Shown here in pieces: positions 41,999-60,902 of a stretch of DNA of 64,000 nucleotides. Origin of the DNA: a phage. Within the stretch, counting starts at the first letter, position 1, and every line of letters begins with the position of its first letter. The stretch is from NCBI GenBank assembly GCA_033648345.1, contig GCA_033648345.1_4121.1; one strand, given 5' to 3'. Position numbers and translations under genes: made by a program. The notes beneath the pieces are model-generated. The model worked only from the letters and a program-made list of their open reading frames with translations, made no database searches and was not told where the DNA came from.

Positions 41999-42058
41999 TT
42001 GCAAACTAAGTTTAACGGCGTATAATGTTTTACATCGAGAGCGGGAACACTTCCCGCT
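41999..42058 (+). promoter_or_regulatory. early-type promoter (TTGCAA…TATAAT) with 5' stem-loop
   Basis: AGTACTTGCAAACTAAGTTTAACGGCGTATAATGTTTTACATC then GCGGGAACACTTCCCGC hairpin before SD. Confidence 0.6.
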
Positions 42059-42081
42059 ACATATTACGAGAGATTAAAACG

Positions 42082-42444
42082 ATGGCGACTCAAATCACTA
42101 AAATTATTGCTAACCTGGTTAACTTCCGCGACGAGATGAAAGGTCTTCCGGCTGAAACGGTAAAAATTCACATCGCAGCTTATCGGGAACTTATTGCAAT
42201 GTTGCCGCTTAAGCGTGAACAATACGCCGCGACCGTGATGCTTGATGCGATGATCCATAAGATGATCGCCAGTGATTTGACGATGGCGTATCAGTATATG
42301 GGTGAATTGTTCGCGGTGTATAGTAAACCAGTACCAGGAATGGAAAGTACAGAAGTATTACACGGTTTAAATTTAAAACAAGATGCATGGGATAATATGC
42401 CTCGTTTCCTGGTATGGGCTGACAGTGGCAAGATTTACGAATAA
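42082..42444 (+). CDS. hypothetical protein (120 aa)
   Basis: ATG after promoter hairpin and GAGAG SD; track start 42025 lies inside the promoter. Confidence 0.6.
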   Translation: MATQITKIIANLVNFRDEMKGLPAETVKIHIAAYRELIAMLPLKREQYAATVMLDAMIHKMIASDLTMAYQYMGELFAVYSKPVPGMESTEVLHGLNLKQDAWDNMPRFLVWADSGKIYE

Positions 42445-42458
42445 GTTTTAGAAAGTAC

Positions 42459-42516
42459 TTGCAAACTAAGTTTAAAAGCGTATAATGTTTTACATCAGGT
42501 GGGGAATAGTTCCCCA
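42459..42516 (+). promoter_or_regulatory. early-type promoter with 5' stem-loop
   Basis: Same consensus; hairpin GGGGAATAGTTCCCC. Confidence 0.6.
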
Positions 42517-42536
42517 CTATATAAGAGGATTAAAAA

Positions 42537-42776
42537 ATGGCTAAATCAAAAATGTTCTTAGGTCACAAAAACAAAACTCATTGGAATGTAAGCCTTTGGA
42601 TTAATAACGATGAGTCATTGTACCGGTTGGCCCTGGACTTTATTGCCGCCAATACTAATCGCAATGATGCGGCCCGTCATATGATGTTATTTTTAGAACA
42701 GACTGGACAAGATAAAACACCGGACGGATTCAAATATAGCACTACTGCGATCCGTGCGGCGATGGTTGGAATGTAA
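42537..42776 (+). CDS. hypothetical protein (79 aa), paralogue of 44576-44815
   Basis: AGAGGA SD; shares …GHKNKT[HQ]WNVSLWINN…TPDGFKYSTTAIRAAMVGM with 44576. Confidence 0.65.
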   Translation: MAKSKMFLGHKNKTHWNVSLWINNDESLYRLALDFIAANTNRNDAARHMMLFLEQTGQDKTPDGFKYSTTAIRAAMVGM

Positions 42777-42861
42777 TAGAATTTATTTAAAGTACTATCG
42801 CAAAAAATGATAGTACTTTATAATAGTGTTTTATTCATACACCAACGATAAGGGCAACAGC

Positions 42862-43128
42862 ATGAATATTAAGTATTTTGCGACGCGTGAACAAGCTCGG
42901 ATCGCCGCACGCCAGGACGGGGCAACGTTTAAAGATATGGGCGTACAATCGGAACGTGGTAAACGTTGGGCCATTATAAAGCGTAGTACCGCCAGATCAT
43001 TACAGTACTGGTTAGCGGCGTTAAAAAGTCCCGATAGTGTATCGCGTCGAGTGGTAGAAATAAAGCTCGACCGAAAGGGCAACCGCGTGACCGTGTACCG
43101 TACTAAAAAGATTGCAGTACTTGAATAA
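42862..43128 (+). CDS. hypothetical protein (88 aa), paralogue of 55885-56280
   Basis: AAGGG SD; shares FATREQARI…FKDMG…KRWA…DRKGNRVTVY with 55885. Confidence 0.6.
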   Translation: MNIKYFATREQARIAARQDGATFKDMGVQSERGKRWAIIKRSTARSLQYWLAALKSPDSVSRRVVEIKLDRKGNRVTVYRTKKIAVLE

Positions 43129-43135
43129 AAAGTAC

Positions 43136-43195
43136 TTGCAAACTATGTTTAATGGCGTATAATGTTTTACATCGAGAGCGGGAACACTTCCCGCC
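43136..43195 (+). promoter_or_regulatory. early-type promoter with 5' stem-loop
   Basis: TTGCAA 43136-43141, TATAAT, GCGGGAACACTTCCCGCC hairpin. Confidence 0.6.
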
Positions 43196-43215
43196 TATAA
43201 CCTGGAGTAATAAAA

Positions 43216-43446
43216 ATGACTAATATGTATATGACTGAAGTTAAAACCGTAAAAGATACTACCACGAATAAAACTACTTACTTACAGCGGATCTGCGGTG
43301 TATGGCAACGTATCAGCAAATCAAAGTACTTTAAATTAACATCATATGCAAACCGTTCGGATTCATTCAGTACTGAAATAAAAGGTAATAAAGTACACCA
43401 ATACGGCACTTATTATTATTATAGCCTGGACGCGATTGCAGTATAA
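43216..43446 (+). CDS. hypothetical protein (76 aa)
   Basis: GGAG SD. Confidence 0.6.
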   Translation: MTNMYMTEVKTVKDTTTNKTTYLQRICGVWQRISKSKYFKLTSYANRSDSFSTEIKGNKVHQYGTYYYYSLDAIAV

Positions 43447-43476
43447 GCAGTTTACAAATCTTTACAATTGCCGGTA

Positions 43477-43505
43477 TTGACTTATTTTGTCAGTACTGGC
43501 ATAAT
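43477..43505 (+). promoter_or_regulatory. sigma70-type promoter driving element E copy
   Basis: TTGACT 43477-43482, spacer with AGTACTG, CATAAT 43500-43505. Confidence 0.5.
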
Positions 43506-43509
43506 GTAT

Positions 43510-43695: not shown

Positions 43696-43723
43696 TTGCA
43701 AACTATGTTTAAAGGCGTATAAT
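43696..43723 (+). promoter_or_regulatory. early-type promoter (upstream member of a tandem pair)
   Basis: TTGCAA 43696-43701, TATAAT 43718-43723. Confidence 0.55.
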
Positions 43724-43730
43724 GTTTTAC

Positions 43731-43810
43731 ATCAGGACGGGGAACGAAATAAGTAACTCCCCGTTAAGTAGCCCAGGAGTAAGGCACACGAAAAACTCCC
43801 CTGATAAAAT
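43731..43810 (+). ncRNA. conserved non-coding leader between tandem promoters (element L)
   Basis: ATCAGGACGGGGAACGAAATAAGTAACTCCCCGTTAAGTAGCCCAGGAGTAAGG…ACGAAAAACTCCCC; no start codon; repeated at 54691 and 46677. Confidence 0.35.
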
Positions 43811-43813
43811 AGT

Positions 43814-43841
43814 TTGACAAATGTTTTTAAAAGCGTATAAT
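43814..43841 (+). promoter_or_regulatory. sigma70-type promoter (downstream member of tandem pair)
   Basis: TTGACA 43814-43819, TATAAT 43836-43841. Confidence 0.55.
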
Positions 43842-43873
43842 ACTTACATCAACTACTGAATGAGGGTTACAAA

Positions 43874-44485
43874 ATGAAAACTATCACTACTACTACTTTC
43901 GTTATGGATTTTTCTGAATTGAACGCAGAACAAAAAACGTCAGCTATCGAACTGGTTCGGGAACGTGAAAAAAACTCAAACGACAATTATTTTTCTGAAA
44001 GTGAAATTGAATACTATAAAGAAACAGTACTACCGGAATATGGCATTAATGACGCTGAAATACAATTCAGTGGTTTTTGGTCCCAGGGTGACGGTGCATC
44101 AATCAGTACTGACCACGTTGACGGTGTGAAGTTTTTACGCAAGGTAAGAGCATTAACTAAGTATCGCTCAATCCGTCACTTGCTGAATGAAGATGATTTG
44201 GCGATGAGTGTAAAGCGTTCTCATTCTTTGTACTTGCATGAGAATACTGTAAGCGGGTACATTGAATCGGCTTACACTGATTTAACCGCAAAACAAGAAA
44301 CGTTAGTTAATGAGCTTGAGGAACTACTCACTGAAACTATTCGTGAATTATCCCGCAAGTTGTACCGTGATTTAGAGAATGCATATGAGGATCAATTCAC
44401 TACTGAAAACATCGTATCACTGATTGAGGGTAACGAATATCAATTCAATGTTATTGATGGCGTAGTAGAATCAATCGAATATTAA
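43874..44485 (+). CDS. hypothetical protein (203 aa)
   Basis: GAGGG SD. Confidence 0.65.
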   Translation: MKTITTTTFVMDFSELNAEQKTSAIELVREREKNSNDNYFSESEIEYYKETVLPEYGINDAEIQFSGFWSQGDGASISTDHVDGVKFLRKVRALTKYRSIRHLLNEDDLAMSVKRSHSLYLHENTVSGYIESAYTDLTAKQETLVNELEELLTETIRELSRKLYRDLENAYEDQFTTENIVSLIEGNEYQFNVIDGVVESIEY

Positions 44486-44575
44486 TTCAAAAAGTACTTG
44501 CAAACTAAGTTTAAAAGCGTATAATACTTTATATCGAGGCGGGGAGTGGTTCCCCGCTCAAACGAGGATTTAAAA

Positions 44576-44815
44576 ATGGCTAGTACTAAAACTTATAACG
44601 GACACAAAAACAAAACTCAATGGAATGTAAGCCTTTGGATTAATAACGGTGAGTCATTGTATCGGCTTGCACAAAGTTGTATCGCACAAAGTAGAACTAA
44701 AGATATTGCAGCGGAATGCATGTACCGCAGATTAAAAGCCAACGGTACTACTACAACGCCGGACGGCTTTAAGTATAGCACTACTGCGATCCGTGCTGCA
44801 ATGGTTGGAATGTAA
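44576..44815 (+). CDS. hypothetical protein (79 aa), paralogue of 42537-42776
   Basis: Promoter + GGCGGGGAGTGGTTCCCCGC hairpin + GAGGA SD then ATG 44576. Confidence 0.65.
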   Translation: MASTKTYNGHKNKTQWNVSLWINNGESLYRLAQSCIAQSRTKDIAAECMYRRLKANGTTTTPDGFKYSTTAIRAAMVGM

Positions 44816-44873
44816 TATTCAGTACTGTAACAATGGCGGGGAATGGTTCCCGCCTTTATTGAGGGTTTATCTA

Positions 44874-45134
44874 ATGAGTAAAGTAATTAACTATACAGTA
44901 CTAAGCAAGTCATTGTCTATCAGTGAATGCACCGATGGTTTTTGGCTTTATGATGAAACGCGTGGAATGAATTTAGCTATGCGTGTAAAAACTGCTGAGG
45001 CGGCGTATCTTGAGGCACTGGAATACTACCAGGAACGTTTAACGGAAGTAGAAGAAGATTATAAAAGCCTCAAAGCGAAAGTAGATCATTTCGTCGGTCA
45101 ATTCATCGAGGAAGACGACGATAAACAATACTGA
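44874..45134 (+). CDS. hypothetical protein (86 aa)
   Basis: Intercistronic hairpin GGCGGGGAATGGTTCCCGCC, GAGGG SD, ATG 44874. Confidence 0.55.
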   Translation: MSKVINYTVLSKSLSISECTDGFWLYDETRGMNLAMRVKTAEAAYLEALEYYQERLTEVEEDYKSLKAKVDHFVGQFIEEDDDKQY

Positions 45135-45222
45135 AAAAAAGTACTTGCAATTAGTTTTCAGTACTGTATAATAGTTTACATCAAGTGGAGAAATGGTTCT
45201 CCCTGGTAATGAGGAAAATAAA

Positions 45223-45444
45223 ATGGCTAATATCACTACTCTTTCCCAACTGGAAGCACTGGTTAAATCTATGCGGGAACATGCCGACAAAATCGGCGTA
45301 CAAGATCCAGCCGTTTGCTTCTGCGACGAATTGAATGATGATACCCTTGTAATAGCAGAAGTCCAGGACGTTTCTAACTATTCCTCGCGTTACACTGGCG
45401 GCGTAGCAAATAAAGGCGACTTCTGTTTATACCTTACAAAATAA
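45223..45444 (+). CDS. hypothetical protein (73 aa)
   Basis: Promoter TTGCAA 45145/TATAAT 45167, hairpin, GAGGA SD. Confidence 0.6.
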   Translation: MANITTLSQLEALVKSMREHADKIGVQDPAVCFCDELNDDTLVIAEVQDVSNYSSRYTGGVANKGDFCLYLTK

Positions 45445-45579: not shown

Positions 45580-45687
45580 CAACTATTTTTCAAATACTTT
45601 TTATTAAAATACTTGCAATTAGTTTTTAAACGCGTATAATGTTTTGCATAGGGGGAGCGGTTCCCCTGGTAACTAAGGAATAATAAA

Positions 45688-45924
45688 ATGCTTGAACAAA
45701 TCAAATCAACGTCTGCGAATGTAACGGGAACGGTAGCACACTTTACTAGTGATGAATCGCGGGGCGTTCCCTATTGTGCTGTACATGTAAACACTGATGG
45801 CAACTACTGGTTTACGGTTTACGGATCATATTCATTTGGACGGCCTGGGCATCAAAAAATTCTGGATAAAGTACAACCAACGGGTAAAAATATCACTGCC
45901 GAAATGTTTTATAAAAAATCATAA
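45688..45924 (+). CDS. hypothetical protein (78 aa)
   Basis: Promoter TTGCAA 45613/TATAAT 45635, hairpin GGGGGAGCGGTTCCCC, AAGGAA SD. Confidence 0.6.
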   Translation: MLEQIKSTSANVTGTVAHFTSDESRGVPYCAVHVNTDGNYWFTVYGSYSFGRPGHQKILDKVQPTGKNITAEMFYKKS

Positions 45925-46008
45925 AGTACTTGATAATAGTTTTTAGTACTGTATAATATTTTACATCGCAAGGGGGAGCGGTTCCCCCTAGTAACTAAGG
46001 ATAATCAA

Positions 46009-46308
46009 ATGAAAATTGCAATCATCGCCCTGGCTTTATCTGTTTCCTCTTTCGCTGTTAATGCGTCATTAGATGTAAGTAGTGAAAAATTCATTCAGTG
46101 CACTGTTGCAATGACCGATGAAAGAACTGGCGAGATTGTATTAAAGGATTTAGAGATCCAGCCGGAAGCATTTAAAAACGGCCCGTTCCATGAAGAAGAC
46201 GAAAACGGTAGCACAACAATTTATTATGATGCCAGTACTAAACGCGGTTCGGTCACTGTAATGGATACTGAGAAAGTAACTCATACTGGCGTTATTAATT
46301 GCCGTTGA
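46009..46308 (+). CDS. secreted protein (99 aa), signal peptide
   Basis: MKIAIIALALSVSSFAVNA leader; own promoter and hairpin. Confidence 0.65.
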   Translation: MKIAIIALALSVSSFAVNASLDVSSEKFIQCTVAMTDERTGEIVLKDLEIQPEAFKNGPFHEEDENGSTTIYYDASTKRGSVTVMDTEKVTHTGVINCR

Positions 46309-46592: not shown

Positions 46593-46676
46593 TTGTAGTA
46601 TCGTAGTACTGAGATACTTTGAAAATAGTTTTAAAAAAGTAGTTGACATTACCGCAGAAAAGCGTAGAATGTATTA

Positions 46677-46750
46677 CATCAAGACGGGGAGCACTAAGTA
46701 GACCGCCAGTAAGTCGAACGAAAAACTGGACACGTCGAGAAAACTTTGAT
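46677..46750 (+). ncRNA. conserved non-coding leader (element L, divergent copy)
   Basis: TTGACA 46643/TAGAAT 46665 then ATCAAGACGGGGAGCACTAAGTAGACCGCCAGTAAG…ACGAAAAACTGG. Confidence 0.3.
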
Positions 46751-46793
46751 ACACTAATAAACGTAAACTAAACTTTAATTGAGGATTTATAAA

Positions 46794-47412: not shown

Positions 47413-47550
47413 AGTTAAGGCCGTTAGAATGCGATTTAGAGCGTTTAAAGTATTTTGCAAAAAGTAATAAAAAGTACTTGCACGATTCAGAGATTAGCGT
47501 ATAATGTTTTACATCAAGGCGAAACACCTTAACTAACTGAGGATATAAAG

Positions 47551-47703
47551 ATGAATACTTATGAACTGGATTGTTTCACTATGCAAGTAATGTTAGTATG
47601 CAGTAAAAAAGAATGGTCATCAAAGGAATTTAAAGCAGTTATTGCGTGTGCAAAACACGGCAAGACTATCAATGAAACGGCATCAATCATTGATAAACTT
47701 TAA
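47551..47703 (+). CDS. hypothetical small protein (50 aa)
   Basis: Below track threshold; promoter (TATAAT 47500) + GAGGA SD then ATG. Confidence 0.5.
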   Translation: MNTYELDCFTMQVMLVCSKKEWSSKEFKAVIACAKHGKTINETASIIDKL

Positions 47704-47773
47704 AAAATAGTTTGACAATAGTTTTAAGTACTGACATAATACATACATCAACTACTGAATAGGAATCAAAACA

Positions 47774-48001
47774 ATGGCTATCGTAATCACTCGCGTATCT
47801 GGTACTACTGGCAATTCTTCTACTGTTGCTGTAATTACTAATAAGAAAGGTGCGGAATTACATTTTGCAATGAATACCTGGGCGGTGAATGAGTTCGGTC
47901 AGTGGGCTAGTGTAGAATACATTGAAACCTATCAAGTGCCAACCATTAGCTTAACGGATCTCGGCGTAGATCGTATCTTATGCCTGGATGAATTAAATTA
48001 A
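47774..48001 (+). CDS. hypothetical protein (75 aa)
   Basis: Promoter TTGACA 47712/CATAAT 47735; AGGAA SD. Confidence 0.6.
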   Translation: MAIVITRVSGTTGNSSTVAVITNKKGAELHFAMNTWAVNEFGQWASVEYIETYQVPTISLTDLGVDRILCLDELN

Positions 48002-48086
48002 AAAAGTACTTGCAAAGTAAATCAAATAAAGTATAATACATTACATCAAGGGGAGAAATGGTTCTCCCCACTACAAGGAAACTAAA

Positions 48087-48236
48087 ATGAAAACTTGTCA
48101 ATGTGGTCAGAAATCTATTACGGGTTTAAAGCGGGGCGTTGCTCTTTGCCAGTACCATTATAATTTACAAGTATGGGGTAAAGAATGGGCCGACCAGGTG
48201 GAAGCAGCAAAGAAAGCAAAAAGTAAGTAAAAATAT
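48087..48236 (+). CDS. small Cys-containing protein (49 aa), possible zinc ribbon
   Basis: Below track threshold; promoter + hairpin + AAGGAA SD; CQCG…CQYH. Confidence 0.5.
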
Positions 48237-48248
48237 TATCACAGTACT

Positions 48249-48277
48249 ATTGACATAGTTTGATAGTACTGGCATAA
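48249..48277 (+). promoter_or_regulatory. sigma70-type promoter (duplicated module, copy 1)
   Basis: TTGACA 48249-48254, spacer GTTTGATAGTACTGG, CATAAT 48272-48277; about 80 bp repeated at 48525-48605. Confidence 0.6.
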
Positions 48278-48311
48278 TAGATTTTATCAAGACAACTAAG
48301 AGGAAACAATA

Positions 48312-48524
48312 ATGGCTATCATCACAAAAATCAAAGTAAACAAATCACTGGTTAAGCTGGAAGAAGTGAAAGAAGGTTATAAAGTATCGTGGTGCGGCAT
48401 GTATCGGATTTTTACAGATGTTGACGATGCAATCAATTACTACACTGACACGGTAAAAAACTTTGTTCGTGCTGATGTGGTTATGGCAGTGGCAACACAC
48501 AAAGCATCGAAAGAAAGTAAGTAA
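48312..48524 (+). CDS. hypothetical protein (70 aa)
   Basis: AGAGGA SD. Confidence 0.6.
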   Translation: MAIITKIKVNKSLVKLEEVKEGYKVSWCGMYRIFTDVDDAINYYTDTVKNFVRADVVMAVATHKASKESK

Positions 48525-48543
48525 AAATATTATCACAGTACTA

Positions 48544-48572
48544 TTGACATAGTTTGATAGTACTGGCATAAT
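48544..48572 (+). promoter_or_regulatory. sigma70-type promoter (duplicated module, copy 2)
   Basis: Identical to copy at 48249. Confidence 0.6.
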
Positions 48573-48605
48573 AGATTTTATCAAGACAACTAAGAGGAAA
48601 TTAAA

Positions 48606-48950
48606 ATGGCTAACATCAACACTATCGCAGCACAAAATATCAACCTGTCTTCTGTTGAAGTTGTACATATTGCCGCTCGGCGTTGGTTCCAGGCTTCATA
48701 TGGTAACACTTATTTCTCTTTAAGTGTAGACGTAGAAATTGATGGTAATTTTATTGAAGTAGTAAACGTGCCGTTCCAATATGGATACGGGGATCATTTT
48801 GACACTGTAGCAATGGAAGAATTTAGCAAGGTTATTAATATGGAAGGTAAAGAGTTTTTACGCGGTTCTTATCTTTCACGTTTTTGCCGTGATAATAATA
48901 TCACTGTTTACAGTTCGGTAACTGATGTTAAACGCAAAAAAGATCTTTAA
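48606..48950 (+). CDS. hypothetical protein (114 aa), paralogue of 55466-55789
   Basis: Shared GNTY…YGYG…VKRKKD with 55466. Confidence 0.65.
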   Translation: MANINTIAAQNINLSSVEVVHIAARRWFQASYGNTYFSLSVDVEIDGNFIEVVNVPFQYGYGDHFDTVAMEEFSKVINMEGKEFLRGSYLSRFCRDNNITVYSSVTDVKRKKDL

Positions 48951-49030
48951 TTAGCTTTACTTTATGCAGATACTTTGATATAGTGTCTGCATAGGGGAAA
49001 GAAATTAAATTAACTTAAGAGGATAGTATA

Positions 49031-49629: not shown

Positions 49630-49839
49630 ATGCTTACTGTACAGGATAAGATCGACATCTTAAAGGTTAATATGTATGTGATTGATGCCGTACCTGGTAA
49701 AGTATTTGCATACGATGACACTACTGTAAGCGATTTCTACTATAGCCAGGCCGTGGGGGATCTTTCTGTACAGTCGGTTATTGAAAACGTAGTTAATGCA
49801 GCGTATGAGCATTTACTTTCAAATAGTACTTGCAATTAG
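49630..49839 (+). CDS. hypothetical protein (69 aa)
   Basis: ORF closely following previous stop. Confidence 0.55.
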   Translation: MLTVQDKIDILKVNMYVIDAVPGKVFAYDDTTVSDFYYSQAVGDLSVQSVIENVVNAAYEHLLSNSTCN

Positions 49840-49908
49840 TTTTTAAACGCGTATAATGTTTTACATGAAGGGGAGAAATGATTCTCCCCACTAATTAAGG
49901 AATATGAA

Positions 49909-50055
49909 ATGAAAGCATCAAAAAAGAGTAATACTAAGAAAGCACGTTCACCTTTCGCTGGGGTATTCCCTTTACGTTTCGTTGATGAAGTGGTTTCCTA
50001 CCCGCCGGGCCTTACTCCTGAGATGGTAGAAAGTTTGCGTAAATCTAAAAAATAG
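49909..50055 (+). CDS. hypothetical basic small protein (48 aa)
   Basis: Below track threshold; promoter + GGGGAGAAATGATTCTCCCC hairpin + AAGGA SD. Confidence 0.45.
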   Translation: MKASKKSNTKKARSPFAGVFPLRFVDEVVSYPPGLTPEMVESLRKSKK

Positions 50056-50136
50056 TACTTGCAATTAGTTTTTAAACGCGTATAATGTTTTACATAGAGG
50101 GGAGAAATGGTTCTCCCCAATAACAGGAGAATCAAA

Positions 50137-50289
50137 ATGAAACAATACAATGCTCGGTTTGATGTTACTATCGGCAACGGCAAAGGTCAATTTTCTTTCA
50201 GTACTCGCCGCAGTTATACAGAAAACTTCCTGCGTAATTGTGCACTGACCGCCGCACAAATTAAACATTACTTCCAGGCTAAAAAATGA
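50137..50289 (+). CDS. hypothetical small protein (50 aa)
   Basis: Promoter + hairpin + AGGAGA SD; track start 50107 is inside the hairpin. Confidence 0.55.
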   Translation: MKQYNARFDVTIGNGKGQFSFSTRRSYTENFLRNCALTAAQIKHYFQAKK

Positions 50290-50606: not shown

Positions 50607-50724
50607 TATAAGTATTGAGTACTGAAAACTATTTTTAAAAAGTACTTGCAAACTATCTCAATAAGCGTATAATGTTTTACATCGAAAGGGGAAACGGTTT
50701 CCCCTGGTAATAAGGAAACAAATC

Positions 50725-51066: not shown

Positions 51067-51157
51067 TATAAAAAATAGTTTGACAATAGATTATAGTACT
51101 GTATAATTAATTACATCAAGGGGAGAATAGTTCTCCCCAACTAAGAGGAAAAAGAAA

Positions 51158-51643: not shown

Positions 51644-51733
51644 AATATATTACCAGTACTATTGACAACGTTTGATAGTACTGTATAATAAGTTTTATAA
51701 ACAGTAGTTAACTTAACCTAAGAGAGAAACAAA

Positions 51734-51877
51734 ATGATCGCACTGGATTCATTCATCGACGCAGTACTGGCAAAAACTGGCGAGGATCTGACCGCAGAAC
51801 AATACGCGATGATCGAGCAATGTCAGCAAAACGGTAAATCGGTGAAAGATACTGTTAAGATTATCCGCAAGATGTAA
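51734..51877 (+). CDS. hypothetical small protein (47 aa)
   Basis: Below track threshold; promoter TTGACA…TATAAT + AGAGAGA SD. Confidence 0.45.
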   Translation: MIALDSFIDAVLAKTGEDLTAEQYAMIEQCQQNGKSVKDTVKIIRKM

Positions 51878-52766: not shown

Positions 52767-52830
52767 AAAGTAATTGACAGTACTGAAAGATAGTGTATAA
52801 TGTTTTATATCTTAACTGAGGATTGAAATC

Positions 52831-53187
52831 ATGGGTATTCAACACATCACGCGTACTACTGACAATGGCGAGATCACTGGTTATCAGGTACAGGGCAAAG
52901 TAGCACAATTGCAGTACTGGTTTGTTAAACGTGGAATCATTGCACCGGATCTTGATTATGACCGTGTAGCGTTTATTGATTCTCTTTATGTTGATCCTGA
53001 TAGTCGGGGCAATGGTGAAGGTAACGAATTAATGAATGCCTTTATTGATGCCGCCGATGATTCAGATTGTATCATCTTAGAATGCGATACGGGAGAAGAT
53101 AACGCCTTTAATCTTAAAGAATGGTACGAAGGCTTCGGATTCGAGGTATTGATAGATAGTGAATATCCTATCATGATTTTATCATAG
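52831..53187 (+). CDS. possible GNAT-family acetyltransferase (118 aa)
   Basis: IDSLYVDPDSRGNGEGNELMNAFID resembles acetyl-CoA binding motif A; assignment tentative. Confidence 0.45.
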   Translation: MGIQHITRTTDNGEITGYQVQGKVAQLQYWFVKRGIIAPDLDYDRVAFIDSLYVDPDSRGNGEGNELMNAFIDAADDSDCIILECDTGEDNAFNLKEWYEGFGFEVLIDSEYPIMILS

Positions 53188-53266
53188 TACTTGCATTTAG
53201 TTTTCAGTACTGTTATAGTACTTGCATCAAGGGGAAACATCTTCCCCTACTAAGAGGAAATAAAAA

Positions 53267-53455
53267 ATGGAAAACTTATCAAGTATTTTAGTACAAGATG
53301 ATTTCGGTAATCCTGGAAGTGCTATCATTGTTCGGGGCAATAAAGCAACGTTTGTTATTGCTGGTGGACCCGTACAGCGTAGCATTAAAAATAATGCTGT
53401 TACCATTAATAATGTACGCTATCGCTTAGATAAAGAATTAATTCATAAACTGTAA
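53267..53455 (+). CDS. hypothetical protein (62 aa)
   Basis: Promoter + hairpin + AGAGGA SD. Confidence 0.6.
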   Translation: MENLSSILVQDDFGNPGSAIIVRGNKATFVIAGGPVQRSIKNNAVTINNVRYRLDKELIHKL

Positions 53456-53806: not shown

Positions 53807-53889
53807 AAACTATTGACAATGCAATCCAGTACTGTATAATAGTTTACATGAAGGGGAGAAATGATTCTCCCCACTAAGAGGAAAGAAAA

Positions 53890-54102
53890 ATGCAAGGTCA
53901 ACTAATCGTTCGTAAATGGTCTGATACTAACGAAAAACCGTGGGATGTACAATACATCGCCCCAAATGGTGAATCCAGATATCAACCAGGTGTAACGCAT
54001 AGTACTGAGCAATTCGCCGCCGCTCATCGCGAACGTCTGTTACAATCAATGCAGCAAGGTTCCGGTGAAAAATTCATTCAGGATCATTGGCTGAAAGATT
54101 AA
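53890..54102 (+). CDS. hypothetical protein (70 aa)
   Basis: Promoter + GGGGAGAAATGATTCTCCCC hairpin + AGAGGA SD. Confidence 0.6.
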   Translation: MQGQLIVRKWSDTNEKPWDVQYIAPNGESRYQPGVTHSTEQFAAAHRERLLQSMQQGSGEKFIQDHWLKD

Positions 54103-54188
54103 AAAGTACTTGCACTGTACTGAATAAAGTGTATAATGTTTTATATCGGAAGGGGAATAGTTCCCCTCCGAACAAAGAGGAAAGTATA

Positions 54189-54362
54189 ATGGTCCAGGTA
54201 GAATTAACAGTACTGAAAGATCTGTTTTATCGGATTGGTACTACTGGCGAATATCCGAAGGGTGATAATGCAAAACTTTACGTATCACTCGACTTATGGC
54301 AACGCGAACAATTAGCAACGGCCTGGCGTAAAGGCAAAGCAGATCGAGAGGTGAAAGCATGA
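54189..54362 (+). CDS. hypothetical small protein (57 aa)
   Basis: Promoter + GGAAGGGGAATAGTTCCCCTCC hairpin + AGAGGA SD; track start 54087 is in the promoter. Confidence 0.55.
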   Translation: MVQVELTVLKDLFYRIGTTGEYPKGDNAKLYVSLDLWQREQLATAWRKGKADREVKA

Positions 54363-54508: not shown

Positions 54509-54522
54509 AAATAATTGAAAAA

Positions 54523-54558
54523 GGGATTGACTCCGGTCAGTCCCTTTGCTATTATATA
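54523..54558 (+). promoter_or_regulatory. terminator-hairpin/promoter composite (PeSL-like)
   Basis: GGGATTGAC-TCCG-GTCAGTCCC hairpin + TTTGCTATTATATA. Confidence 0.6.
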
Positions 54559-54603: not shown

Positions 54604-54690
54604 GTTTGCTGGTGGCTAGTACTATCAAGTACTGAAAACTATTTTTAAAAAGTACTTGCAAAGTATCACGATAAGCGTATAATGTTTTAC

Positions 54691-54770
54691 ATCAGGACGG
54701 GGAACGAAACAAGTAACCCCGTTAAGTAGTCCAGGAGTAAGACATACGAAAAACTCCCCTGATAAAATAG
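54691..54770 (+). ncRNA. conserved non-coding leader between tandem promoters (element L)
   Basis: Near-identical to 43731-43810. Confidence 0.35.
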
Positions 54771-54832
54771 TTTGACAATAGAAAGTAAACGAGTATAATA
54801 CTTACATCAACCACTGATAAGGAAACATTAAA

Positions 54833-55108
54833 ATGCGGATTCTACTGACAGCTAACGAAATCGAACAAGTACTGACTACTAACCTGGAAGACTGGAAACG
54901 TGAAGCAGATATCCAGGCGGTTCAATGGCTTAACGATAAGTTAACGCCGGATGACTTAAGCAAGATTGTAGATCCTCAATTCTACGAAGATATTCACGAC
55001 ACCGCGTTAAGCGTCGAGGATGTACTTGATAAGCACTACATTGATACTGATTTACATGTTTACGGTCGTAAAAACTTTATCACTATTCACGACATTTACA
55101 ATACTTAA
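54833..55108 (+). CDS. hypothetical protein (91 aa)
   Basis: AAGGAAA SD. Confidence 0.6.
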   Translation: MRILLTANEIEQVLTTNLEDWKREADIQAVQWLNDKLTPDDLSKIVDPQFYEDIHDTALSVEDVLDKHYIDTDLHVYGRKNFITIHDIYNT

Positions 55109-55196
55109 GTATTGACAAAGTATCTTAGTACTGTATAATAGTTTACATCAAGTGAGGGGAAACGGTTCCCCTCCTAACAAAGAGAGAGAAATAAAA

Positions 55197-55379
55197 ATGG
55201 CTAAGTGCACTATCTGCAAGAAAGAAATAGTATTAGTTCCAAGTGCCCGTGAACGTGCCGCTCGGTTTGGTGGCAAAGCGTCAGACTATACAAAAATGTT
55301 TACTGCCCATACAGCTTGCCAGGTAGCAAAACGTTCACAAGAAAGCGTAGAATTAATGCGTAAACTTTCCAAAAAATAA
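55197..55379 (+). CDS. small Cys-containing protein (60 aa)
   Basis: Promoter TTGACA…TATAAT + GAGGGGAAACGGTTCCCCTC hairpin; MAKCTICKK…HTAC. Confidence 0.55.
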   Translation: MAKCTICKKEIVLVPSARERAARFGGKASDYTKMFTAHTACQVAKRSQESVELMRKLSKK

Positions 55380-55465
55380 GTATTGACAAAGTATCTTAGT
55401 ACTGTATAATAGTTTACATCAAGTGAGGGGAAACGGTTCCCCTCCTAACAGAGAGAGAAATAAAA

Positions 55466-55789
55466 ATGGCTATGATCCTTACCCAGAAAGTGGAATTGAA
55501 AATTGTAACCTCCTTTGACATTAAAGTTAATCGGTGGACTGATTCACACGGCAATACTTACCACTCTTGCTACGTGTCTGCGTTAATTGGCGACCGCTGG
55601 GAAGACCTGGGACACGAAACCTTTACATACGGTTACGGTACGCAAGGCGAATACACTGGTTTGGAGATCATTAAAGAAACCGTTATAGGTTTCAACCCGA
55701 AAGAAAAAGTTATTCACCGCATCGAAAAAGAGATTAACAAAGAAATAACAGTTCGCTACTACGATGTAAAACGTAAGAAAGACATGTAA
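55466..55789 (+). CDS. hypothetical protein (107 aa), paralogue of 48606-48950
   Basis: Exact duplicate of the promoter module upstream of 55197. Confidence 0.65.
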   Translation: MAMILTQKVELKIVTSFDIKVNRWTDSHGNTYHSCYVSALIGDRWEDLGHETFTYGYGTQGEYTGLEIIKETVIGFNPKEKVIHRIEKEINKEITVRYYDVKRKKDM

Positions 55790-55884
55790 TAGAATCCATT
55801 TAAAGTACTATTTGACATTGCCCAGATAGTACTTTATAATAGACTCTAACTTGTAGTACTAACTCAACTAATAGGATGTATACC

Positions 55885-56280
55885 ATGATTACTAAATTCT
55901 ACGCTACCCGTGAAGCTGCCCGTATTGTTGCACGCGAGGAAGGAGCAGCATTTAAAGACATGGGAACGACAGCACCGAAAGGTCAACGCTGGGCCGTACA
56001 GTTCAAAGAAATCTCTGATATTGTGAATTCACCTGAGCCAGTACTGACAGCAGCAGAACTAAAACGAGCGGATATGCTGGCGGCAATACTTGACGCACAA
56101 GATGAGTTTATCGCTGATTCTGATATCAAAGTACAGGTAAACCACACCGCATGGACTCACGCGGATCACCTGGCAAACCTTAAGCGTCCAAGTGAACTGA
56201 TTCGCAACCAGAAAGAGATCCGACATGATCGTAAGGGTAATCGTGTAACAGTATACAGTAAACGCCGCCAGGTTATCTAA
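55885..56280 (+). CDS. hypothetical protein (131 aa), paralogue of 42862-43128
   Basis: Promoter TTGACA…TATAAT; AGGATG SD then ATG 55885. Confidence 0.6.
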   Translation: MITKFYATREAARIVAREEGAAFKDMGTTAPKGQRWAVQFKEISDIVNSPEPVLTAAELKRADMLAAILDAQDEFIADSDIKVQVNHTAWTHADHLANLKRPSELIRNQKEIRHDRKGNRVTVYSKRRQVI

Positions 56281-56302: not shown

Positions 56303-56328
56303 GGCGGGATCAGTTCCCGCCTTTTTTA
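56303..56328 (+). terminator. rho-independent terminator
   Basis: GGCGGGATCAGTTCCCGCC hairpin + TTTTTT. Confidence 0.7.
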
Positions 56329-56341: not shown

Positions 56342-56596
56342 ATGATTAAGGTTCAACTATATAAAGATAACATCTTACGGGTACACTATAAAGCACCGAA
56401 GAGAATCATCACAAAGGCCGTACAGCTTGCTAATGAGTTTATTAATGGTAACCTATTACCGAGGAAGTTAAGCAACGGGAAACTGCGTGTAATCGACGTG
56501 GACACTAACAACAGGATAGTAATCGAGAACACAGGAAAGATAAACCTTTATGAGCATCAACAATACAATAAGAAAATAAAACTAATATCACGTTGA
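56342..56596 (+). CDS. hypothetical protein (84 aa)
   Basis: ORF, weak SD. Confidence 0.5.
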   Translation: MIKVQLYKDNILRVHYKAPKRIITKAVQLANEFINGNLLPRKLSNGKLRVIDVDTNNRIVIENTGKINLYEHQQYNKKIKLISR

Positions 56597-56649
56597 CAGT
56601 ACTCAATTGTTTTAGTATTATGTACACATACCAACACGGGAGAAACAAA

Positions 56650-56868
56650 ATGAAATTATCTAAAATCGAAAAGAAAACTATTGATGAAGCAGTTAAGCAC
56701 GGTTATACCTTTCGTAATGATTCACATTTTACCAATTATCAACAAGGGTATCGTACTATTAAAAAACTTATTGACAAAGGTTTATTAGTTGAAGTCAATA
56801 ACGGCAATGGCATTGAGTATCAACCAACACAGGACGCATTTTATTTTAAGAAATATAATATTATCTAA
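56650..56868 (+). CDS. hypothetical protein (72 aa)
   Basis: Promoter TTGACAGTACTCAA…; GGGAGA SD then ATG 56650. Confidence 0.55.
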   Translation: MKLSKIEKKTIDEAVKHGYTFRNDSHFTNYQQGYRTIKKLIDKGLLVEVNNGNGIEYQPTQDAFYFKKYNII

Positions 56869-57892: not shown

Positions 57893-58008
57893 GCATTCAG
57901 TACTGAAAACTATTTTAAAAAAGTACTTGCATTGTACTTAGAATCAAGTATAATGTTTTATATCGAGAGGGGGAAATGGTTCTCCCTGGTACATTAAGGA
58001 ATAAAATC

Positions 58009-58416
58009 ATGACTACTACTAATCAAGCTCGGTCCATCGCCAACGATAAAAATCATGCTGCAATGGTCGCTGGTTACATTGAAGCTATGCAATTCAGTAC
58101 TGTACACAATGAGAACGGCGAATACCTGGAAGATTATGAATTATCAGAGCAAGCCCATCAAGCGGCAGTGATTGCATGTTCACGTTTCCTTGCTGTACAT
58201 GGTGAAGATATGGAAACAGTACAAAAACACCATAATCCTGATTATACTTATAGTCATGCAGGTCATGATCTCTTTCTTACTCGCGAAGGTCACGGCACTG
58301 GTTTTTGGGATCGTGATATCGGTCACTATGATGATATATTCACTAAGTACTGCGAAGAAATCAACGTTTGCGATCCCTATGTAGGCGATGATAATCTAAT
58401 CTATATGGGCGAATAA
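58009..58416 (+). CDS. hypothetical protein (135 aa)
   Basis: Promoter + GGGGGAAATGGTTCTCCC hairpin + AAGGAA SD; track start 57976 is in the hairpin. Confidence 0.6.
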   Translation: MTTTNQARSIANDKNHAAMVAGYIEAMQFSTVHNENGEYLEDYELSEQAHQAAVIACSRFLAVHGEDMETVQKHHNPDYTYSHAGHDLFLTREGHGTGFWDRDIGHYDDIFTKYCEEINVCDPYVGDDNLIYMGE

Positions 58417-58504
58417 AAGTATTTGACAAAGTATATCAGTACTGTATAATAGTTTACATCAAGGGGAGAATAGTTCTCCCCCACCAATAAAAGGAAACAA
58501 AATT

Positions 58505-58777
58505 ATGTCCAGCTACTCCGCTACTATGATCATTAAAGATATGAACGGTAATCCTACTTCTGCTGGTGGATCATTTGGAAACATTAATTTAGATGGTCGG
58601 TTATCCATGCAATCAGCCATCGATGCAGCGAAAGAAGTTTTTAAGAATGAATGTACTGTAAGTAAGCTGGATTATATGGGATTCGCTATCGAAAAAACTA
58701 ATCGTTTTGTGAACTACAAAAATCCACTGATGATCGATACTAACCTGAAAGCAAACGAAGTGGGGTACTTATTATGA
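58505..58777 (+). CDS. hypothetical protein (90 aa)
   Basis: Promoter TTGACA…TATAAT + hairpin + AAGGAA SD. Confidence 0.6.
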   Translation: MSSYSATMIIKDMNGNPTSAGGSFGNINLDGRLSMQSAIDAAKEVFKNECTVSKLDYMGFAIEKTNRFVNYKNPLMIDTNLKANEVGYLL

Positions 58778-58965
58778 CAGTTGAAGAAGTTAAAAAAGTA
58801 CTGGCAGTACTACGCTATCATAATCATTGCAAGGTGAAGAATGATCCTGATTATCTCGATTCATCCCTGGAAGAGGATACACTACAAGCAATAAGCCATA
58901 TGCAAAAAATGCTTAAGCGTATGACCGAAAAGAATAGGCCGGACTATATCGGAAATAAAATTTAA
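58774..58965 (+). CDS. hypothetical protein (63 aa)
   Basis: ATGA overlap with previous stop. Confidence 0.55.
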   Translation: MTVEEVKKVLAVLRYHNHCKVKNDPDYLDSSLEEDTLQAISHMQKMLKRMTEKNRPDYIGNKI

Positions 58966-59052
58966 AAAGTACTTGCATTGTAGTTAGATTAACGTATAAT
59001 GTTTTATATCGAGAGGGGGAAATGGTTTCCCCTCAAGTCCAGGAGATACACC

Positions 59053-59316
59053 ATGAACACTATCGAAATCACTATCAATGCACACGTATACGACAACGTA
59101 GTACTGCAAACTACTATGACCGCTAATGATACCAGTACTTTGCGGAATACTGTTATTAGTGCCGTATGTGCTGCAATCGGTGATGTATCCCTGGAAAATG
59201 CAGAACATATCAACAACGGTTTCACTATGTGCAAGCGTGATAACGCAAAACATATCATCGTGGAAGGTTACGGCGGTGTAGAATTTAATGTTTATATGAA
59301 AAAAGTACTTGCATAA
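59053..59316 (+). CDS. hypothetical protein (87 aa)
   Basis: Promoter + hairpin + AGGAGA SD then ATG 59053. Confidence 0.6.
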   Translation: MNTIEITINAHVYDNVVLQTTMTANDTSTLRNTVISAVCAAIGDVSLENAEHINNGFTMCKRDNAKHIIVEGYGGVEFNVYMKKVLA

Positions 59317-59383
59317 TAACTAAAACAAAGTATAATGTTTTGCATAGGGGGAGATATCCTCCCCCACTAAAAGGAGTAATAAA

Positions 59384-59608
59384 ATGGCTAACTTTGATGA
59401 ACTGATGCGGGAAGTAGCTAACCTGGCAGAAGAGAAGAAATCATTCGATTCTATCTATAACACCGCTCACCGTGATTCAGTACTGGCATGTAACCAGGAT
59501 CAAAAAGATGAACTAATCGCCACCTATCATGAAGCATGGAAGTACTACCGACAATGGGAGAAAGAAGAAAGTGAGTCTACCATTGACGGCCTCAATAATC
59601 TAATCTAA
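59384..59608 (+). CDS. hypothetical protein (74 aa)
   Basis: Promoter + GGGGGAGATATCCTCCCCC hairpin + AAGGAG SD. Confidence 0.6.
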   Translation: MANFDELMREVANLAEEKKSFDSIYNTAHRDSVLACNQDQKDELIATYHEAWKYYRQWEKEESESTIDGLNNLI

Positions 59609-59684
59609 AAGTTTTATTTCAGTACTATTGACATAGCTTGATAGTACTGATGTAATAACTTTACTAACTACAAGGGGAAACATA

Positions 59685-59942
59685 ATGGAACAGTTCACAC
59701 AATATCGGGTAAATCCACAAGCTATGGCCTACGTAGAAGACCATAAAACGTTACCAGTACTGCAACCAGTTAAAGGCCGTATCTATCGTGGCCTTGCCTG
59801 GGATACGGCCCAGGATGGATATAAAACCGTCGCCGTGGGGATGTATTGCGGGAATGGTGAATGGTTTGATCCTAGCAATCCGATTGCACTTGACAGTACT
59901 GAAAAAATGAAATGGGCCGACTACATCGAAGATATTTCATAA
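59685..59942 (+). CDS. hypothetical protein (85 aa)
   Basis: Promoter TTGACA…; AAGGGGA SD. Confidence 0.6.
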   Translation: MEQFTQYRVNPQAMAYVEDHKTLPVLQPVKGRIYRGLAWDTAQDGYKTVAVGMYCGNGEWFDPSNPIALDSTEKMKWADYIEDIS

Positions 59943-60032
59943 AAACTATTTGACAGTACTAACCAGTAATGTATAATGTTTTACATAGAGCGGGGGAATA
60001 GTTCTCCCGCCAATAGTTTGGAGTTAAACATT

Positions 60033-60233
60033 ATGTCTATCGCTATCGCCCTGGTTGAAGTACTGAAAGAAGCTAAAGCCAACCAGATCGACGTAAAGAT
60101 CCAGGAACTACAAAACGGCTTAATCGGCTGTACTTGTACCGCTGGTGGAGCGGCAGACTATCGAGAACACGAATCACTCGAATCACTGGTTCGGTATCTT
60201 ACCATGATCGTTGATGATTGGAGAATCATCTAA
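60033..60233 (+). CDS. hypothetical protein (66 aa)
   Basis: Promoter + GCGGGGGAATAGTTCTCCCGC hairpin + GGAG SD; contains Chi at 60141. Confidence 0.55.
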   Translation: MSIAIALVEVLKEAKANQIDVKIQELQNGLIGCTCTAGGAADYREHESLESLVRYLTMIVDDWRII

Positions 60234-60251
60234 CAAAAAAAGAATAAAAAA

Positions 60252-60288
60252 GGGATTGACTCCGGTCAGTCCCTTTGCTATTATATAC
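60252..60288 (+). promoter_or_regulatory. terminator-hairpin/promoter composite (PeSL-like)
   Basis: GGGATTGAC-TCCG-GTCAGTCCC hairpin + TTTGCTATTATATA. Confidence 0.6.
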
Positions 60289-60332
60289 GCATAGACAAAA
60301 ACTAGCCCACAGGGTGCATAGGTGTATCTAAA
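60289..60332 (+). ncRNA. candidate small RNA/leader (element E) downstream of PeSL
   Basis: CGCATAGACAAAAACTAGCCCACAGGGTGCATAGGTGTATCTAAAAT; Chi at 60364 follows. Confidence 0.3.
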
Positions 60333-60480
60333 ATATATAGTTAATAACGGTGAGTAACTATCTGCTGGTGGAGTGAAAACTATTAATAAAAAAAACTATT
60401 GACAAAGTATATCAGTACTGCAATAATGTATCTCGTAGGGCGGCAATGGTGCGACGGCCCACAAAGTTAGGAGATTCAAA

Positions 60481-60813
60481 ATGAGTACTTCAATCGCTAT
60501 CGTTAAAGCTTTCATCCGTACCAATGTTTCATCTGTATTCATCGACGGTCTGGATCGGGAAGTAGAATACTCAATCATTATCGCACAGACTGCAAACGGT
60601 GCTCGGTATATCCTTAATAATAGTGAAGCAAATCACTACTACTTCACTAAAGCTACTGGCTTTAAACGCATCGATGCTGACGTAGTATACACTAAGATGA
60701 ATAAGCTGGTAGACAAGATTAACGCGAAAGGTACTATCGATTTACAGTACTGGACCGAAACCGATCCAGAATATGGATCTCACCGCTACCTGAATCCAGG
60801 TATTAAAATGTAA
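60481..60813 (+). CDS. hypothetical protein (110 aa)
   Basis: Promoter TTGACA…; AGGAGA SD. Confidence 0.6.
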   Translation: MSTSIAIVKAFIRTNVSSVFIDGLDREVEYSIIIAQTANGARYILNNSEANHYYFTKATGFKRIDADVVYTKMNKLVDKINAKGTIDLQYWTETDPEYGSHRYLNPGIKM

Positions 60814-60902
60814 AAAGTACTTGCATAGTACTTAGATTCATGTATAATGTTTTACATAGAGAGGGGGAAATGGTTCTCCCTCCTAAATTAAGGAGTTTTA
60901 TC

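Follow-up and report, generated by a model that had tools for sequence, protein, structure and literature searches.

Promoter-hairpin cassettes resembling the PeSLs of T4-like phages in the inferred terminal repeat of an Asteriusvirus jumbo phage

Introduction

Promoter early stem-loop elements (PeSLs) were described in the T4-like phages RB49/phi1, T4/PST, and KVP40/nt-1 (Arbiol et al., 2010, PMC2839356; Comeau et al., 2014, PMC4122927). They consist of a near-perfect sigma-70 early promoter, preceded by an A/T-rich tract, and a stem-loop of the form G(n)-loop-C(n), with a Shine-Dalgarno sequence (SD) and an ATG on the 3' side (PMC2839356, PMC4122927). PeSLs of different T4-like groups differ in sequence (PMC4122927), and their authors proposed that they serve both as promoter/terminator units and as patches of homology that shuffle genes, even yielding mini-circles (PMC2839356, PMC4122927). 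Here, an array of similar cassettes is described on a 64,000-nt stretch of Asteriusvirus DNA (contig GCA_033648345.1_4121.1 of assembly GCA_033648345.1, hereafter the window), for which a preliminary description had reported a stereotyped early promoter followed by a hairpin on most genes at 42-61 kb.

The leader of phage T7 gene 10 has a 5' stem-loop (GGGAGACCACAACGGUUUCCC), and phage T5 carries its pre-early region in a terminal repeat. I know of no report of a conserved leader hairpin in T5, nor of a first-step DNA transfer in Asteriusvirus. E. coli ompA and papA have stabilising hairpins in their 5' untranslated regions (UTRs) (Emory, Bouvet and Belasco, 1992, listed in PMC3997798). Among the most highly transcribed early genes of PA5oct, a related jumbo phage, are genes of its terminal repeat, and highly expressed non-coding RNAs (ncRNAs) were reported in the same repeat (PMC7318152). 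No mention of leader hairpins or PeSLs was found in the Asteriusvirus, CBB, and rV5 literature, where promoters and terminators are listed. The ARNold annotation of phage G17 marks only canonical terminators and no leader hairpins.

Results

Anatomy of the cassettes

A scan for sigma-70 promoters returned 36 gene-linked promoters on the + strand from 41999 to 60821, each no more than 110 nt from its gene. They matched TTGACA-N16/17-TATAAT at 12/12 positions in twelve cases and at 10-11/12 in the rest, and a AAAAAGTAC-type A/T-rich tract was found upstream of all 36. The -10 hexamer and the initial transcribed sequence (ITS) form a block, CGTATAATGTTTTACATC, with 26 copies (at most 3 mismatches) against 0.16 expected, all on the + strand from 40702 to 60858. 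GGGGA-N5-12-TCCCC was present in 21 copies against 0.06 expected, 19 of them within 41.2-59.4 kb. The array of promoter, hairpin, and SD is thus real and far above chance, but its scope had been overstated: the hairpin had been called obligatory and was placed on nearly every early transcript, while a stable single hairpin follows only 26 of the 36 promoters (~70%), which corresponds to 26 of about 50 genes. One copy lies outside the range first given, at 9699-9776, and the -35 region reads AAAAAGTAC-TTGCAA in about half of the copies and TTGACA in the remainder.

Cassettes are built in a fixed order, with an A-rich tract, the -35 and -10 hexamers, the ITS GTTTTACATC, the hairpin, 5-10 unpaired A-rich nt, a strong SD, and the ATG of a small orphan open reading frame (ORF). 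The hairpins have a G-run/C-run stem of 6-9 bp with outer extensions, a loop of 3-6 nt, and a predicted folding energy (dG) of -8 to -16 kcal/mol, and the 3' tail of every one of them is A-rich (e.g. ACTAAG.. or AACAAAG..). The GGGGAGAAATGGTTCTCCCC hairpin alone has six near-identical copies in the window. Spacing is tight, with 10.9±2.0 nt from the -10 hexamer to the start of the hairpin and 18.6±2.2 nt from its end to the ATG. In the 13 leaders that were folded, the hairpin was the sole structure and left the SD and ATG open; folding z-scores against dinucleotide shuffles were negative in 13/13 (-1.2 to -3.8). The preliminary description had called the hairpin 5'-terminal: with transcription predicted to start 7-8 nt past the -10 hexamer, it would fall in the leader, behind 3-7 unpaired nt rather than at the very end.

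Ten promoters have unstructured leaders of 22-27 nt with a dG near 0 (e.g. ATCAACTACTGAAT..SD). Presence of the hairpin is polymorphic between orthologs, as the promoter and gene at 47712 have none in the window while the ortholog in the rV5-like phage W70 has one, the two being separated by a clean ~17-nt indel that lies between CATCAA and the SD.

Two pairs of neighbouring cassettes (48250 and 48544; 55112 and 55383) are near-identical and precede different ORFs, which suggests a local duplication or an exchange in progress. Hairpin loops at 44546, 45193, 50107, 57976, and 60870 contain an ATG or GTG (..GAAATGGTT..) which opens a frame 30 nt before the real SD-linked start, so that mechanical ORF callers start these genes inside the hairpin; some GenBank annotations possibly do the same. 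These triplets (AAUGG) were considered as real starts and rejected, being in frame in some cassettes only and too near the SD-like arm, and they are judged coincidental.

Selection on base-pairing

A loop-centred, ungapped alignment was made of 26 distinct hairpins with 4-nt loops, drawn from the window, from three more Asteriusvirus genomes, and from three additional genera; it replaced a plain MAFFT alignment of whole leaders that was structurally inconsistent. Paired cells made up 85% of this alignment, compared to 67.5±1.6% with the 3' letters shuffled and 50-62% with partners slid by 1-3 columns. Compensatory double-sided changes occurred in 9/10 stem pairs and in 48 cells, against 15.2±3.5 cells in shuffles (0/500 reached the native value), and the covariation score was 0.571, against 0.213 for shuffled and at most 0.263 for slid partners. 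Native arms folded at a mean of -11.8 kcal/mol, compared to -7.1 kcal/mol for chimeric pairs of 5' and 3' arms. Covariation of the stems, which had been named as one of the checks in the preliminary description, is therefore strong, and these data show that the leader hairpin is selected as a base-paired structure and is not a frozen repeat. A sequence-specific DNA operator is excluded by the same compensatory variation; the half-sites of an operator for a dimeric repressor would stay conserved, and here they co-vary.

The promoter-hairpin-SD layout returns with different stems (GGGGATAC/GTATCCCC, GAGATTCCAG/CTGGAATCTC, GGGAATGAA/TTCATTCCC, GGGGCAA/TTGCCCC, and GGGAAGAG/CTCTTCCC) in the terminal repeats of two Klebsiella phages, Muenster and fENko-Kae01, and of Erwinia phage Hallingskeid. 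Stems also differ in the copies of the element carried by rV5-like phages. In Muenster, the gap between the -10 hexamer and the hairpin ranges from 10 to 26 nt, while the distance from hairpin to ATG stays near 20 nt. Loops vary freely in sequence and length (CAC, UAG, AUGG, GCGG, ACAUC, GUAC), stems vary within one genome, and the leader hairpins have no conserved loop nucleotides of the kind seen in lambda boxB/nut, MS2, or RegA-type operators. A search of 39500-62500 against Rfam 15 gave three sub-threshold chance hits at E up to 1, none of them on the hairpins.

Gene exchange at the cassettes

Non-redundant boundaries of homology blocks were collected by comparing the window with vB_Ec-M-J, CRJP21, and JP4. 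Twenty of 30 boundaries fell inside cassettes, which make up 19.7% of the DNA (binomial p=3e-8), and 5 further boundaries lay within 7 nt of a cassette, bringing the count to 25/30. The small ORFs behind the cassettes are mostly orphans, and the region is hyperplastic. Cassettes and several ORFs are held in common with W70, an rV5-like phage of the Vequintavirinae (~140 kb), at 75-88% nucleotide identity, and this sharing indicates a recent exchange of early-gene modules between unrelated coliphage families. The cassettes mark the borders of the exchanged units. Conserved cassettes flank variable ORFs, and because they are the sole homology between otherwise unrelated genes, recombination between them would swap, delete, or insert genes, even across phage families.

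Genome context

In megablast searches with 41.9-49.9 kb and 39-62 kb, the window proved to be Asteriusvirus DNA, i.e. from a jumbo E. coli myophage of the 121Q/PBECO4/phAPEC6 type. Matches to phAPEC6, SHEFM2K, CRJP21, JP4, fEgEco12, 121Q, and PBECO4 had 93-96% identity and were patchy, and no record in the 39-62 kb search reached 80% coverage of this 23-kb query. A direct terminal repeat (DTR) of ~21 kb (Table 1) was placed on the strength of the JP4 record, in which window position 61734 is fused straight onto 40317, and of the CRJP21 record, which stops at about 61734. A ~21-kb DTR is annotated or experimentally shown over homologous DNA in vB_Ec-M-J and fEgEco12 (PMC13070987). GC skew points to + strand transcription from about 40 kb onward, and the catalogue of ORFs and SDs lists ~50 small + strand genes in 41.9-61.8 kb, with ORFs of 47-203 aa. 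Among the 10 largest ORFs of the repeat, a GNAT domain alone passed the Pfam cut-off.

Table 1. Positions of the cassettes and related features in the window. Cassette rows are based on the promoter scan, hairpin calling, and the ORF/SD catalogue; dG is given in kcal/mol, and z is the folding z-score of the leader.
Feature	Position (strand)	Hairpin	ATG	Remarks
Inferred DTR	~40317-61734			~21 kb; contains every cassette except one
Hairpin cassette	41999-42084 (+)	42040-42058	42082	-35 TTGCAA at 41999; -10 ends 42026; dG -11.4; z -3.55
Hairpin cassette	42459-42539 (+)	42498-42518	42537	dG -13.2; z -2.8
Hairpin cassette	43136-43218 (+)	43175-43196	43216	dG -10.9
Promoter with larger-loop hairpin	43696-43813 (+)	43736-43765		heads ~95-nt conserved structured leader/ncRNA; no ORF before next promoter
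Hairpin cassette	44498-44578 (+)	44538-44558	44576	dG -14.5
Hairpin cassette	45145-45225 (+)	45180-45207	45223	dG -8.1
Hairpin cassette	45613-45690 (+)	45645-45671	45688	dG -12.6
Hairpin cassette	45930-46011 (+)	45968-45992	46009	dG -13.3
Hairpin cassette	48010-48089 (+)	48050-48069	48087	dG -12.4
Hairpin cassette	49830-49911 (+)	49870-49889	49909	
Hairpin cassette	50059-50139 (+)	50099-50118	50137	
Hairpin cassette	50646-50727 (+)	50687-50705	50725	
Hairpin cassette	51080-51160 (+)	51120-51138	51158	
Hairpin cassette	51349-51433 (+)	51389-51408	51431	z -3.8
Hairpin cassette	53191-53269 (+)	53230-53248	53267	
Hairpin cassette	53813-53892 (+)	53853-53872	53890	blastn probe
Hairpin cassette	54110-54191 (+)	54146-54171	54189	dG -15.6
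Promoter with hairpin and long conserved leader/ncRNA	54656-54771 (+)	54696-54723		second copy
Hairpin cassette	55112-55199 (+)	55151-55175	55197	
Hairpin cassette	55383-55468 (+)	55422-55446	55466	near-duplicate of 55112
Hairpin cassette	57927-58011 (+)	57968-57987	58009	
Hairpin cassette	58423-58507 (+)	58463-58481	58505	
Hairpin cassette	58973-59055 (+)	59013-59034	59053	
Hairpin cassette	59309-59386 (+)	59347-59365	59384	
Hairpin cassette	59950-60035 (+)	59990-60010	60033	
Hairpin cassette	60821-60905 (+)	60857-60885	60903	
Hairpin cassette	9699-9776 (+)	9736-9756	9774	GGGGATGA..TCATCCCC; sole one of this type outside the DTR
Hairpin-less cassette	43814-43876 (+)			leader ATCAACTACTGAATGAGGG; dG -1.1; z +0.4
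Promoter without G/C hairpin	47478-47553 (+)			conserved -10/ITS block
Hairpin-less cassette	47712-47776 (+)			W70 ortholog hairpin-bearing
Hairpin-less cassette	48250-48314 (+)			extended -10, TGgCATAAT
Hairpin-less cassette	48544-48608 (+)			duplicate of 48250
Hairpin-less cassette	51662-51736 (+)			
Hairpin-less cassette	52774-52833 (+)			precedes GNAT acetyltransferase gene
Hairpin-less cassette	54772-54835 (+)			
Hairpin-less cassette	55812-55887 (+)			
Hairpin-less cassette	56593-56652 (+)			
Hairpin-less cassette	59628-59687 (+)			
Canonical intrinsic terminator	44835-44861 (+)			GGCGGGGAATGGTTCCCGCC + TTTATT; almost the same hairpin as the leaders, plus T-run
Canonical intrinsic terminator	56303-56327 (+)			GGCGGGATCAGTTCCCGCC + TTTTTT; 20 nt before a promoter-less gene
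Terminator-promoter fusion	54520-54555 (+)			hairpin holds -35 TTGACT, then T-run, then TATTAT; same type at 50517, 57798, 60249
Small-RNA-like cores (first C)	43531, 50579, 52241, 54577, 57860, 60306 (+)			
Small-RNA-like cores (first C)	45522, 43599, 41649, 41432 (-)			
Blocks shared with W70	42524-42778, 44576-45122, 45628-45915, 47704-48226, 48247-48623, 48654-48953			

Other elements of the terminal repeat

The left ~1.7 kb of the inferred DTR (40317-41990) is almost devoid of ORFs. It has a consensus promoter with the conserved ITS and no gene at 40682, several hairpins of the GGGGA..TCCCC type (e.g. 41283-41297), and, on the - strand, two small-RNA-like units.

The small-RNA-like family comprises 10 copies in the window, on both strands (Table 1), each an ORF-less unit of ~55 nt with its own sigma-70 promoter, to which it is always sense. 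A short variable hairpin with compensating stems (GGC/GCC, GACG/CGTC, CGC/GCG and others) is followed by a spacer 'cta(a/g)', an invariant core CCCAYNGGGTGC that forms a CCC/GGG stem with a 3-nt loop, and 'ggaaGTGTATCTAT'. The units have no clear terminator, some pairs are convergent, and about 10 copies per terminal repeat are likewise present in Muenster, fENko-Kae01, and Hallingskeid. No Rfam match was obtained at E up to 1. They are possibly an undescribed family of phage ncRNAs and may be more novel than the promoter-hairpin cassettes.

A conserved non-coding leader or ncRNA of ~95 nt follows the promoters at 43696, 54656, and 46643 (window 43724-43813, 54684-54771, and 46671-46790) and recurs in the comparison sequences L004 (W70, 2018-2103), L005 (5051-5150), and L006 (fENko-Kae01, 3598-3703). 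It consists of a 5' hairpin, AAGUAG, and a co-varying helix (CCAGGAG/CUCCCCUGG, CCAG/CUGG, ACCUG/CAGGU) that encloses a conserved GUAAG.CA.ACGAAAAAC, and a second promoter and a gene come after it. This element is kept across three genera and the rV5-like phage, with no match in Rfam.

Terminator-promoter fusions occur outside the repeat as well, at 237, 3831, 4487, 7248, 11611, 12155, and 12495 (+). Their hairpin, GGGTTGACT-TCGG-TCAACCC, has a UUCG-type loop and includes the -35 hexamer, and a T-run and TATAAT or TATTAT follow. The fusions precede ordinary genes in the first 13 kb and small-RNA-like units in the terminal repeat, and are a second PeSL-like subclass.

The palindrome AGTACT is found 275 times in the whole window against 22 expected (12-fold), in coding and non-coding DNA and in both transcription arms. 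It also takes fixed positions at promoters, as AAAGTAC-TTGCAA upstream of the -35 and as cAGTACTG directly before the -10, and the Klebsiella and Erwinia relatives show the same pattern. A modification or binding site, or a promoter spacer element, are possibilities.

Discussion

In anatomy and evolutionary behaviour, the array is by all appearances a PeSL-type cassette in a new phage lineage. As in PeSLs, a strong sigma-70 promoter with an A/T-rich tract (36 promoters) stands next to a stable G(n)-loop-C(n) stem-loop in the same intergenic cassette (26/36), the cassette ends in an SD and a start codon, the ORFs that follow are small, mostly orphans, and part of a hyperplastic region, and indel and replacement boundaries between close relatives coincide with cassettes. 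The differences are that the host of the array is an Asteriusvirus jumbo phage and not a member of the Straboviridae, that the array lies in a DTR, that the leader hairpins have no U-tail, and that the stem-loop is always past the -10 hexamer, about 19 nt from the ATG and within the predicted leader. In the RB49 sequence that was inspected, the stem-loop as a rule occupies the -35/-10 spacer (GGGGATC..GATCCCC) or extends over the -10. A blastn search with one cassette (53813) returned 59 records, none of them T4-like, and RB49 cassettes had no blastn similarity to the window or the relatives' loci except for one 18-nt identity to fENko-Kae01. This identical leader stretch, CATCGAAACGAGATACAC, is at 19938 in RB49 (L008). 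fENko-Kae01 (L006) also has a classical PeSL subclass in which the stem-loop lies over the -10 (e.g. GGGGATAT-ga-TACAATATCCCC), at 6279, 8589, 11699, 16827, and 17886.

Other known systems share single traits with the array. The ompA/papA and T7 gene 10 leaders likewise place a short G/C-clamped hairpin near the mRNA 5' end ahead of an unstructured, A-rich ribosome-binding site (RBS), and the hairpin at 50687 (GGGGAAACGGUUUCCCC) resembles that of T7 gene 10. The T5 pre-early region and the PA5oct DTR (PMC7318152) have in common with it many small host-takeover genes, very strong sigma-70 promoters, and a long DTR. Integron cassettes and phage 'morons' are similar in that small ORFs move as units bounded by conserved sequences, with or meeting their own expression signals; unlike integrons, the array has no integrase or attC sites, and exchange presumably occurs by general homologous recombination between cassettes.

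I consider it about an even bet that the array consists of self-contained early-gene cassettes of the PeSL type in which the hairpin is a passive RNA module. An RNA-level role, in the protection of mRNA ends or in the insulation of the RBS, is plausible from the compensatory variation, from stems too short for cruciforms, from the position of the hairpin in the leader against the RBS, and from the SD being left free. The hairpin would then act in RNA, as its place in the transcribed leader at the 5' edge of the RBS suggests, and would most likely be a passive structural module. It could protect the cassette's own mRNA at its 5' end against decay that depends on exonucleases or RNase E and, in read-through transcripts, do the same for the 3' end of the upstream message, and it would keep the downstream SD and ATG single-stranded whatever lies upstream. 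Such insulation would benefit genes that keep being moved into new surroundings. The hairpin would be helpful yet dispensable, because some promoters and orthologs do without it.

Several observations weigh against this interpretation. When hairpins were called separately on each strand, interior G·U pairs numbered 22 on the sense and 24 on the antisense strand, and the better best-hairpin dG was split evenly between the strands, 27 to 27; sequence alone cannot tell an RNA hairpin from a DNA palindrome. An apparent excess of G·U pairs on the sense strand (31 G·U against 0 A·C, sense more stable) came from hairpins called on that strand and was rejected as an ascertainment artefact, and the purine-rich 5' arm (254 G-C against 30 C-G) was rejected as strand evidence since a G(n)..C(n) palindrome is identical on both strands. 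Hairpin-less promoters and orthologs speak against any essential role. Stabilisers of the ompA type tolerate a 5' overhang of 2-4 nt. The predicted overhang of 3-7 nt is at or past this limit, and reaches up to about 20 nt in Muenster, which makes classical 5'-end protection, as proposed in the preliminary description, marginal; moreover, RNase E readily bypasses orthogonal stem-loops while scanning (PMC9943677). The constant gap between hairpin and ATG could merely reflect tight genome packing, and two true terminators also lie 19-20 nt before an ATG. If PeSL stem-loops share one role, this role is not specific to the 5' UTR, because the RB49 stem-loop lies outside the cassette's own transcript. 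Finally, breakpoints would be intergenic under any model of gene replacement. A switch that sequesters the SD was also considered and rejected, since with the 5' arm deleted the pyrimidine-rich 3' arm pairs with the SD only weakly, mostly at -1 to -5 kcal/mol.

An unlikely but serious alternative is that the hairpin mainly attenuates or terminates transcription coming in from the upstream cassette and limits the build-up of read-through, which is the role originally proposed for PeSLs. Placed between a promoter and lacZ, an RB49 PeSL stem-loop cut expression about as much as rrnB T1 (PMC2839356). Promoters in the window are 200-600 bp apart, and the terminator scan found about 9 canonical + strand terminators in the region for about 50 genes. 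The leader hairpins resemble intrinsic terminators in their G/C-rich stem of 6-9 bp, their loop of 3-5 nt, and the G's on the 5' arm, and the true terminator at 44835 combines almost the same hairpin with a T-run. However, a U-tract is absent behind all 26 leader hairpins, none was called by either of two terminator predictors, and the hairpins are located after the promoter rather than before it. A terminator past the start site would also damp the cassette's own transcripts. As textbook terminators, including terminator-promoter fusions, are present in this genome, real terminators appear to be used where termination is wanted.

That the hairpin is a recognition site for a trans-acting RNA-binding protein of phage or host that co-regulates the early mRNAs, e.g. 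by repressing translation, by antitermination, or by marking phage mRNA for protection during host shut-off, is distinctly improbable. Such a shared site would be in keeping with the G-run/C-run base, with the location beside the SD, and with the appearance of the hairpin on the majority of early transcripts in several phage genera, and the DTR encodes many orphan proteins of unknown function. Against this, loops vary freely, stems differ within the genome, and base-pairing alone is conserved; ten promoters and some orthologs have no hairpin, and Rfam gave no match. The non-conserved loops in particular argue against the binding site for a translational regulator that the preliminary description had offered as an option. 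A related idea, that a host or phage factor reads the shape of the hairpin as a 'self' mark on immediate-early mRNAs of Rak2-like jumbo and rV5-like phages, is a long shot. If true, messages with the hairpin would be spared or preferentially translated during shut-off of host mRNA, and early genes with and without it would be two differently regulated classes.

It is improbable, to much the same degree as a trans-acting factor, that the inverted repeat works in DNA, where a structure-specific recombinase or nuclease would recognise it as a hairpin or cruciform or where it would be a hotspot that drives exchange, and that its presence in the transcript is incidental. Breakpoints are concentrated in cassettes, and the repeat is no better on one strand than on the other. 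In the original PeSL work, one crossover was mapped to the loop of a stem-loop, and a recombination protein that binds GGGG..CCCC was suggested as a speculation (PMC2839356). In the array described here, however, breakpoints occur anywhere in the cassette between the A-tract and the ATG with no focus on the hairpin, and hairpin-less cassettes mark breakpoints too (e.g. 47761, 48295, 48587, and 51702). Cruciform extrusion in duplex DNA needs longer stems than 6-9 bp, and the compensatory variation rules out a sequence-specific DNA-binding site. Least probable of all is a functionless remnant, such as a decapitated terminator, that was duplicated with the promoter when cassettes multiplied: many near-identical copies (six of GGGGAGAAATGGTTCTCCCC) and hairpin loss without gene loss would suit it, but compensatory double changes preserve pairing at 9/10 stem positions, wholly different stems stand at the same position in distant genera, and neutral decay would have erased such short stems.

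Read as PeSL-type cassettes with a passive RNA module, the array leaves current concepts unchanged; the kind of cassette is already known, and the function of the hairpin is inferred. The natural pair of one promoter and gene with and without the hairpin makes that function directly testable, and the cassette is a compact natural expression module with an UP element, a consensus promoter, a putatively insulating hairpin, and a strong RBS. The finding extends PeSL-type cassettes beyond the T4-like phages, to the DTRs of Asteriusvirus, Alcyoneusvirus, and related jumbo phages as well as to rV5-like phages. Exchange between such cassettes would help to explain the mosaic terminal repeats of jumbo phages, and gives a rule for annotating their early transcription units.

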